DNA of 6,690 bases from a virus (lineage: Duplodnaviria; Heunggongvirae; Uroviricota; Caudoviricetes), in the IMG/VR virus record IMGVR_UViG_2547132269_000001, positions 1 through 6,690 of that record. One strand, written 5' to 3'. Under the pieces are notes generated by a model. It made no database searches and had not been told where the DNA came from. It saw only the letters and a list, made by a program, of their open reading frames with translations. Numbering within the stretch: the first letter of the stretch is position 1; each line of letters opens with the position of its first letter. A program made the position numbers and the translations under genes. Shown here one piece after another: positions 432 through 538 of the stretch.

Positions 432-538
432 TGCAAATCTCTCAAAAAAAATCATGGTGCCATATTGCCATACGATTTCAATGGTGTCATTATGGCCCAC
501 ATGGCGTCACTTTGGCACCAAATAAAGGAGATTAGATA
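432..538. promoter_or_regulatory. Divergent promoter/operator region between the mnt-like and arc-like genes
   Basis: 107-bp AT-rich intergenic region between divergent RHH repressor genes. Candidate + strand promoter: -35 ttgcca (465-470), 17-bp spacer, extended -10 tg-t-cattat (485-493). Repeated motif ATGGYGYCA at 454-462, 481-489 and 501-509, with an inverted copy tggcacca at 513-520 (reverse complement of 455-462). SD aggag at 526-530 precedes the arc-like ATG at 539. Promoter and operator assignments are inference. Confidence 0.5.

Follow-up and report, generated by a model that had tools for sequence, protein, structure and literature searches.

What do the short repeats between two divergent phage repressor genes do? 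The question is raised by positions 1 to 6,690 of the IMG/VR record IMGVR_UViG_2547132269_000001, a virus of the Caudoviricetes; this whole stretch of 6,690 nucleotides is called the window below. In it, a leftward mnt-like gene and a rightward arc-like gene are separated by 107 bp, which are intergenic in annotated relatives too, and a gene for a P22-type antirepressor (Ant) lies downstream of arc, the gene order of the immI region of phage P22. The initial annotation had placed the repeats in a divergent mnt/arc control region, and this assignment held, as both flanking proteins match the Pfam family Arc (PF03869) and are followed by a P22-type Ant. Judging from sequence comparison, the repeats probably mark three operator units of a ribbon-helix-helix (RHH) repressor, with the 106-aa Mnt-like protein as the most likely binder. 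Operators for arc-ant are the expected kind of switch at this place; these sites had not been mapped before.

Three operator-like units behind the repeats

The repeats had been described as a 9-mer in three direct copies (ATGGTGCCA at 454-462, ATGGTGTCA at 481-489 and ATGGCGTCA at 501-509), an inverted 8-mer (TGGCACCA at 513-520, the exact reverse complement of 455-462) and a direct repeat TGCCA-TAT-TGCCA at 458-470, and all were recovered exactly where they had been placed. A repeat finder returned the direct family together with two inverted pairs, 455-467/508-520 (I1) and 459-470/485-496 (I2). The pattern TGGYGYCA, which was defined after seeing the data, has 7 matches in the window against 1.26 expected. 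Four of them fall within 455-520 (66 bp), and four matches within 70 nt were seen in 0 of 3000 dinucleotide-preserving shuffles. In an unbiased search of the intergenic region, the best trio of 13-mers beat 100 of 100 shuffles (p < 0.01).

As written, the 9-mer consensus does not extend to relatives, where the middle and third copies vary: T487 is specific to the window, and in most relatives the middle copy reads ATGGTGGCA or ATAGTGGCA, and the third ATGGCGTCA, ATGGTGTCA or ATAGTGTCA. This variation falls inside the 9-mer (positions 483, 503 and 505) and spares certain triplets, which speaks against the 9-mer as the functional unit. The unit predicted from the comparison is instead an element of 11-17 bp with two 3-bp half-sites 8 bp apart. 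Three 11-bp cores (459-469, 486-496 and 506-516) fit G(C/G/T)C-N5-G(G/C)C with A/T-rich linkers, and define the following units.

454-470, no strand assigned: U1, core GCC-ATATT-GCC (459-469); first 9-mer plus TGCCA-TAT-TGCCA; overlaps the −35 element of Pant and the candidate −10 element of Pmnt.
481-497, no strand assigned: U2, core GTC-ATTAT-GGC (486-496); second 9-mer; overlaps the extended −10 element of Pant and the candidate −35 element of Pmnt.
501-520, no strand assigned: U3, core GTC-ACTTT-GGC (506-516); third 9-mer plus the inverted 8-mer at 513-520.

In most relatives the U2 core reads GGC-ATTAT-GGC. Each 9-mer holds the left half-site of one unit, TGCCA-TAT-TGCCA comprises both half-sites of U1, and the inverted 8-mer holds the right half-site of U3. 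The arms of U1 and U2 at 459-470 and 485-496 form an inverted repeat (11 of 12 positions in the common variant), and U3 pairs with 455-467 in I1. The units are separated by 27 and 20 bp. In the 7.75-kb locus of phage WGPS8, a relative that converts its host to Shiga toxin (Stx) production, GBCANNNTGSC matches the three units only; in the window it matches these and one non-conserved site in the tail-fibre gene. This fourth unit-like 11-mer, at 4310-4320 (GGCATTATGGC on the minus strand), was rejected as an operator and is probably a chance match, as it lies inside the tail-fibre open reading frame (ORF) and is not conserved in WGPS8.

Two candidate promoters under the units

The units lie on or beside two candidate promoters.

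465-493, plus strand: candidate arc-ant promoter Pant; −35 TTGCCA (465-470), 17-nt spacer, TG (485-486), −10 CATTAT (488-493).
462-490, minus strand: candidate mnt promoter Pmnt, the mirror of Pant; −35 ATGACA (485-490), TG (469-470), −10 CAATAT (462-467).

The overlap of the repeats with a plausible arc-ant promoter, as proposed initially, was borne out: a promoter scan found Pant with 9 of 12 matches and the TG present, and its −35/TGn/−10 layout occurs in all enterobacterial relatives. We infer the leftward promoter as the mirror image of Pant, with a 17-nt spacer and a dyad at 477.5; its −35 element reads ATGCCA in relatives. It is below the threshold of the scan, and its −10 element CAATAT matches at only 3 of 6 positions. 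The leftward candidate of the scan itself is GTGCCA (518-513)/CATAAT (494-489). Analogous mirror elements, TTAACA-N16-TGT-CAAGTT, were present in SPN3UB-type and Oslo/KP12-type regions. With either leftward candidate, U1 and U2 lie on promoter hexamers of both directions, while U3, at about +1 to +20 of Pant, is outside the hexamers of both and covers only the start of the arc-ant transcript.

The window-specific change G487T turns a U2 half-site from GGC to GTC and at the same time improves the candidate leftward −35 from ATGCCA to ATGACA. In the P22-type immI locus of phage epsilon34 (L009), the leftward elements lie 5 bp to the right of the Pant hexamers, whereas the candidate ones of the window lie 3 bp to the left; the promoter-overlap design thus differs between the two.

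Other readings of this region were tried and rejected. A sigma-54 promoter in TGGTGC-N-TTGC has a GG-to-GC spacing one base short. Of a Pho box, GTGTCAT would be the only matching 7-mer, and it exists only through the window-specific 487T. As a second promoter, U3 lacks a consistent −35, and its TG is polymorphic. An Arc operator in the −35/−10 spacer, as in P22, was dropped, since this spacer varies among close relatives and carries no motif specific to the Arc type.

Conservation and co-variation with the repressor

Relatives were gathered from annotated phages, from one genome per species, and from IMG/VR. Across 13 distinct close variants, none of the six half-site triplets, those of U3 at 506-508 and 514-516 included, varies except through the 487T of the window itself. 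Substitutions fall at 483, 490-492, 498-499, 503, 505, about 512, and 521, that is, in the prefix, linkers and spacer. U1 is invariant in all 21 distinct A1-type variants except for TTGCTA in the GF-2 group. The bases T487, C498 and A499 are peculiar to the window and absent from all complete RefSeq Escherichia coli copies. The length of the poly-A tract at 445-452 also varies among relatives (A7 or A8).

Conservation in orthologous control regions, the check proposed by the initial annotation, came out in its favour, with the repeats kept in relatives from Salmonella, Edwardsiella and IMG/VR; in addition, a change of repressor type is accompanied by a change of the repeats. The Mnt-like N-terminus of the window (MAEKQVKDYD-KFNLRF) also occurs with a different Arc (KTTLRYP/KITLRYP; PhiR5_1, GF-2 and many IMG/VR contigs), and these phages keep ATGGTGCCATATTGCCA ... 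ATGGTGGCATTATGGCC unchanged, and with it U1 and U2; their third copy is a second ATGGTG(G/T)CAT(T/A)(A/G)TGGCC. In phages with the same type of Arc but with KFVVRF in place of KFNLRF as the β-strand of the Mnt-like protein, two identical copies read ATGATGGCATATTGCT, with the core GGC-ATATT-GCT, and one reads AAGGCATAATGCCA, with the core GGC-ATAAT-GCC. The array thus co-varies with the Mnt-like N-terminus.

The design extends well beyond close relatives. Of 91 distinct combinations of Mnt and Arc classes, 86, which range from Enterobacteria to Rhodobacterales, have in the intergenic region a trio of similar 13-mers that exceeds 95% of shuffles; the P22-type locus L009 gave no significant trio. 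Alphaproteobacterial relatives carry three near-identical palindromes such as TGTCCTAATGACA.

Likeness to the AmrZ operator

The geometry of the units is that of a known RHH operator. AmrZ binds amrZ1 (TGGCAAAACGCC) as a dimer of dimers, with half-sites GGC and GCC and a 5-bp A/T-rich linker (PMC3325190, PDB 3QOQ). Lys18 contacts the GG and Arg22 the G opposite C, and no residue contacts the linker (PMC3325190). The amrZ1 core, GGC-AAAAC-GCC, has the same 3+5+3 arrangement as the three units of the window, all of which consist of paired G/C triplets with an A/T-rich linker, although not every pair is inverted like that of amrZ1. Over 46 aligned residues, the RHH domain of the 106-aa protein is about 52% identical to AmrZ by hand count, and its β-strand has Lys and Arg where AmrZ contacts DNA (KFNLRF, against KFVVRL in AmrZ). 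The two proteins are also similar in length (106 and 108 aa), and both have a C-terminal region. The KFVVRF relatives, which share the Lys-Val-Arg triad of AmrZ, carry GGC-ATAAT-GCC, as the AmrZ structure would predict.

The two systems differ in several respects. AmrZ is a chromosomal global regulator of Pseudomonas aeruginosa, whereas the protein of the window is a putative phage immunity repressor, and the middle β-strand residue is Val in AmrZ and Asn here. Two half-sites of the window read GTC where amrZ1 has GGC, and the three putative units form an array over two candidate promoters.

The likely reader of the array

The initial annotation had proposed operators for both flanking repressors. 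In the comparisons, the array is linked mainly to the 106-aa Mnt-like protein; separate Arc sites could not be shown. With triplets taken after an automatic search for the 3+5+3 register, which failed for some classes, and with statistics that ignore the shared ancestry of classes that are not phylogenetically independent, the majority half-site triplet shares 2.22 bits of mutual information (z 17) with the β-strand triad of the Mnt-like protein, and a weaker 2.02 bits (z 7.6) with that of the Arc-like protein. Mnt-like K-M-R goes with GTC in 35 of 38 classes, across at least 15 Arc triads, K-N-R with GCC in 9 of 13, K-V-R with GGC and Q-M-R with AGC (loci L010-L340). S-Q-R Arc partners, on the other hand, occur with GTC, ATC or CTA units, depending on the Mnt partner. 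The class of the N-terminal arm goes with the 5-bp linker, xGRxSD arms accompanying ACSGT in all nine classes (9/9). Three loci in which the first divergent ORF called lacks the RHH β-strand motif (L041, L050 and L084) also have repeated intergenic units by eye. Taken together, these comparative results point to the Mnt-like protein as the probable reader of the array.

Besides the two limits just given for the family-wide values, the following observations weigh against this assignment or against the operator reading as a whole. Unit similarity correlates also with Arc N-terminal similarity, and the operator is physically linked to both genes; a regression meant to separate Mnt from Arc tracking was set aside, since both correlate with unit similarity and are confounded by this linkage. 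At a constant SPN3UB-type Mnt N-terminus, the outer 8-mers differ by Arc partner (TGGGGCCA, TAGGATTA, TGGTGGTA and TGGGGTGT), which hints that Arc may read part of the array. The triplets of amrZ1 form an inverted pair, those of U1 (GCC...GCC) and U2 (GGC...GGC) direct ones. Triplet invariance is weak evidence, because the close variants have diverged by only a few percent. Both U1 and U2 also fall on promoter hexamers, which may account for part of their conservation and of their likeness to each other. Finally, literature searches returned no binding, footprint or transcription-start data and no mapped operators for this module.

The window's Arc-like and Mnt-like proteins have the same Lys-Asn-Arg triad, and the Arc-like protein may therefore read the same triplets. 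A broader proposal, which we put forward tentatively and which is rather doubtful as a whole, is that the locus represents a widespread alternative immI design, in which one three-unit AmrZ-type array over mirror promoters is read by both RHH repressors, with a family recognition code that would link the triad to the half-site (K-M-R to GTC, K-V-R to GGC, K-N-R to GSC, Q-M-R to AGC) and the N-terminal arm to the 5-bp linker.

Alternative readings

The main rival, which we consider unlikely, is a division of labour in which the Arc-like protein binds the outer 8-mers (TGGTGCCA at 455-462 and TGGCACCA at 513-520) or the whole of U1 and U3, and the Mnt-like protein mainly the middle unit over the −10 element. 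The outer 8-mers are exact inverted copies, and both arms change together (TGGGGCCA/TGGCCCCA in the SPN3UB type, TAGGATTA/TAATCCCA in L016). Their change with the Arc partner at a constant Mnt N-terminus and the correlation of unit similarity with the Arc N-terminus fit the same view, as does the occurrence of TGG(T/G)GCCA with Arc type X in both Mnt contexts. In phages with a type-Y Arc and the same Mnt-like N-terminus, however, the left 8-mer TGGTGCCA is unchanged and the right inverted copy is lacking, and the recombinants L288 and L292 have different Arc types and the same right 8-mer TAATCCCA. Family-wide, the units follow the Mnt triad and not the Arc triad. No Arc-only locus by which the Arc site could be calibrated was found: a divergent Mnt-like partner was present in every one of the 172 loci retrieved with Arc queries.

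Less probable still is that the repeats are mainly promoter architecture, that is, two mirror-image extended −10 promoters plus a partial tandem duplication of the −10 region. Part of the similarity between U1 and U2, including the inverted repeat 459-470/485-496, is indeed what two mirror-image promoters alone would produce (TTGCCA/TGG-CATTAT on the top strand, ATGCCA/TGG-CAATAT on the bottom). The mirror design recurs in other subfamilies, and U3 reads TGT-CACTTT in some variants, which resembles an extended −10. Yet U3 lies outside both promoters and its triplets are still kept, and the leftward −10 element is a poor one, with CAATAT at 3/6 and under the scan threshold. Moreover, the units change with the β-strand of the repressor while the host RNA polymerase is constant, and the alphaproteobacterial palindromes are not promoter hexamers.

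Chance similarity, or a by-product of small ATG-rich overlapping ORFs, is very improbable: short ORFs do overlap the region (417-539, 431-535 and 452-544) and the repeat pattern was defined post hoc, but the clustering (0/3000 shuffles), the unbiased trio (p < 0.01) and the preservation of the repeats in Salmonella, Edwardsiella and IMG/VR relatives speak against it, and overlapping Met codons, a concern of the initial annotation, or other small-ORF coding do not explain repeats that are intergenic in annotated relatives.

Proposed mode of action

Under the preferred reading, in which the Mnt-like protein binds three operator units, each unit would take up one dimer of dimers of the 106-aa protein. 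Lys and Arg of its β-sheet would read the G/C triplets as in the AmrZ-amrZ1 structure, and its C-terminal helix would hold the tetramer together. Occupancy of U1 and U2 would occlude the −35 and extended −10 elements of the arc-ant promoter, and U3 would block the start region. As the units cover this promoter, their occupancy would shut off antirepressor synthesis in the lysogen; and since U1 and U2 also carry leftward promoter elements, mnt would be autoregulated, with its transcription limited at high occupancy. The arc-ant transcript also yields the Arc-like protein, which probably feeds back on the same or overlapping units in lytic growth, and a sar-like RNA would add antisense control of ant translation. 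In this scheme the binding itself, its stoichiometry, the leftward promoter and the sites of Arc are what we infer.

The module is present in many Stx1- and Stx2-converting phages, and antirepressors such as P22 Ant can inactivate prophage repressors. For this reason, the sites that would keep ant silent are candidates for the control of prophage induction and of toxin release, and mutagenesis, reporter fusions and footprinting can be aimed precisely at the probable operators and promoters. If the broader proposal of an alternative immI design is true, control of Ant, and hence SOS-independent induction of Stx prophages, would become directly testable. If the link from β-strand to half-site were confirmed, it would help to predict specificity in a very common class of small repressors, and a true recognition code would make the operator specificity of Arc/Mnt/AmrZ-like repressors predictable from sequence.

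Comparison with P22 immI and MetJ

The gene order and orientation of P22 immI (mnt, Pmnt/Pant, arc, sar and ant, with Omnt and Oarc) are those of the window. Both have two Arc-family RHH repressors and an Ant with P22_AR_N and P22_AR_C domains, and both modules are morons within the late/tail region. The sar RNA at the arc-ant junction and the overlapping divergent promoters of P22 have candidate counterparts in the window. U3 occupies the position of Omnt in the epsilon34/P22-type locus, just downstream of the Pant −10 element.

The operators differ. The P22 operators GGTCCACGGTGGACC and ATGATAGAAGCACTCTACTAT have no match in the window within 3 mismatches, in agreement with the initial remark that the motif is not that of P22; the absence of the Oarc and Omnt sequences suggests a distinct specificity. 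P22 has one 17-bp Omnt (at +1) and one 21-bp Oarc between −35 and −10, whereas the window has three similar units. Neither the sequence nor the layout of the P22 operators was found, and the −35/−10 spacer is variable among relatives of the window. Unlike P22, the host phage is a long-tailed lambdoid Stx phage, with the module between tail genes L and K.

Short repeated sites for an RHH protein also form arrays in the case of MetJ, whose met-boxes are 8-bp tandem boxes. The 8-bp half-site spacing and the several nearby units overlapping a promoter are common to both. Unlike in MetJ, the units are 27 and 20 bp apart and not contiguous, no co-repressor is known, and there is no sequence relation.

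Genes and genomic setting

From its matches to related phages, the control region is identified as part of a P22 immI-like module, which in Stx-converting lambdoid phages is an insertion between the tail genes L and K. Its other features are as follows.

111-431, minus strand: mnt-like repressor gene, 106 aa (ORF and Pfam Arc PF03869).
539-712, plus strand: arc-like repressor gene, 57 aa, β-strand K-L-N-L-R-L (PF03869).
702-1706, plus strand: antirepressor gene ant, P22-type, with P22_AR_N and P22_AR_C domains.
717-783, minus strand: sar-like antisense RNA across the arc-ant junction (Rfam RF00262).

The 106-aa protein matched PF03869 with 73.3 bits (cutoff 20.4), and its PDB matches were Arc, AmrZ (3qoq, E 5e-8) and Mnt (1mnt). 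It has an N-terminal RHH domain with the β-strand K-F-N-L-R-F, followed by a C-terminal helical region, in which a single-sequence AF2 model, of the monomer only and of low confidence (pLDDT 63.9), places a long helix at residues 69-102. The 57-aa protein matched the same family with 22.1 bits (cutoff 20.4); its gene is preceded by a Shine-Dalgarno sequence, AAGGAG, at 526-531.

The match of the sar-like RNA to RF00262 is full-length with 29.8 bits, below the gathering score of 43 (E 0.0019), and includes a terminator-like hairpin at 751-720. With this sub-threshold match across the arc-ant junction, the immI-like unit would be complete. A promoter-like pair, TTGATT (817-812) and TAAACT (794-789), lies nearby, and the 5' end of the RNA is complementary to GAGAAA...ATG at 771-785. 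In RefSeq relatives the annotated start of ant corresponds to 702, so that the gene overlaps the end of arc. The ATG at 783 is more likely to be the true start, because the sar-like RNA and its terminator sit inside the extension that begins at 702 and the P22_AR_N domain begins near 816.

Over its first 1750 bases, the window shares about 95% identity with Stx1- and Stx2-converting lambdoid phages (WGPS8, 2851, 1717 and YYZ-2008). Annotation of the module in these phages is confined to "Arc family DNA-binding protein" (the 106-aa homologue in WGPS8), "Arc-like repressor" (the 57-aa homologue) and "Ant". Of 5426 complete E. coli genomes, 273 contain the 161 bases around the repeats, and many of these are O157:H7 and O26 strains; the best match among the complete RefSeq genomes is 98.1% identical, and none reaches 100%.

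The inserted module is bounded on the left by a terminator-like hairpin and T run (103-120, plus strand), which directly follow tail gene L and abut the stop codon of the mnt-like gene. On the other side, the homologue of tail gene K (a C40 peptidase, 1761-2498) is split into two frames, 1761-2369 and 2159-2497, with a 1-nt gap near 2150 when aligned to WGPS8; the gap is either a sequencing error or a true frameshift, which would suggest a defective prophage.
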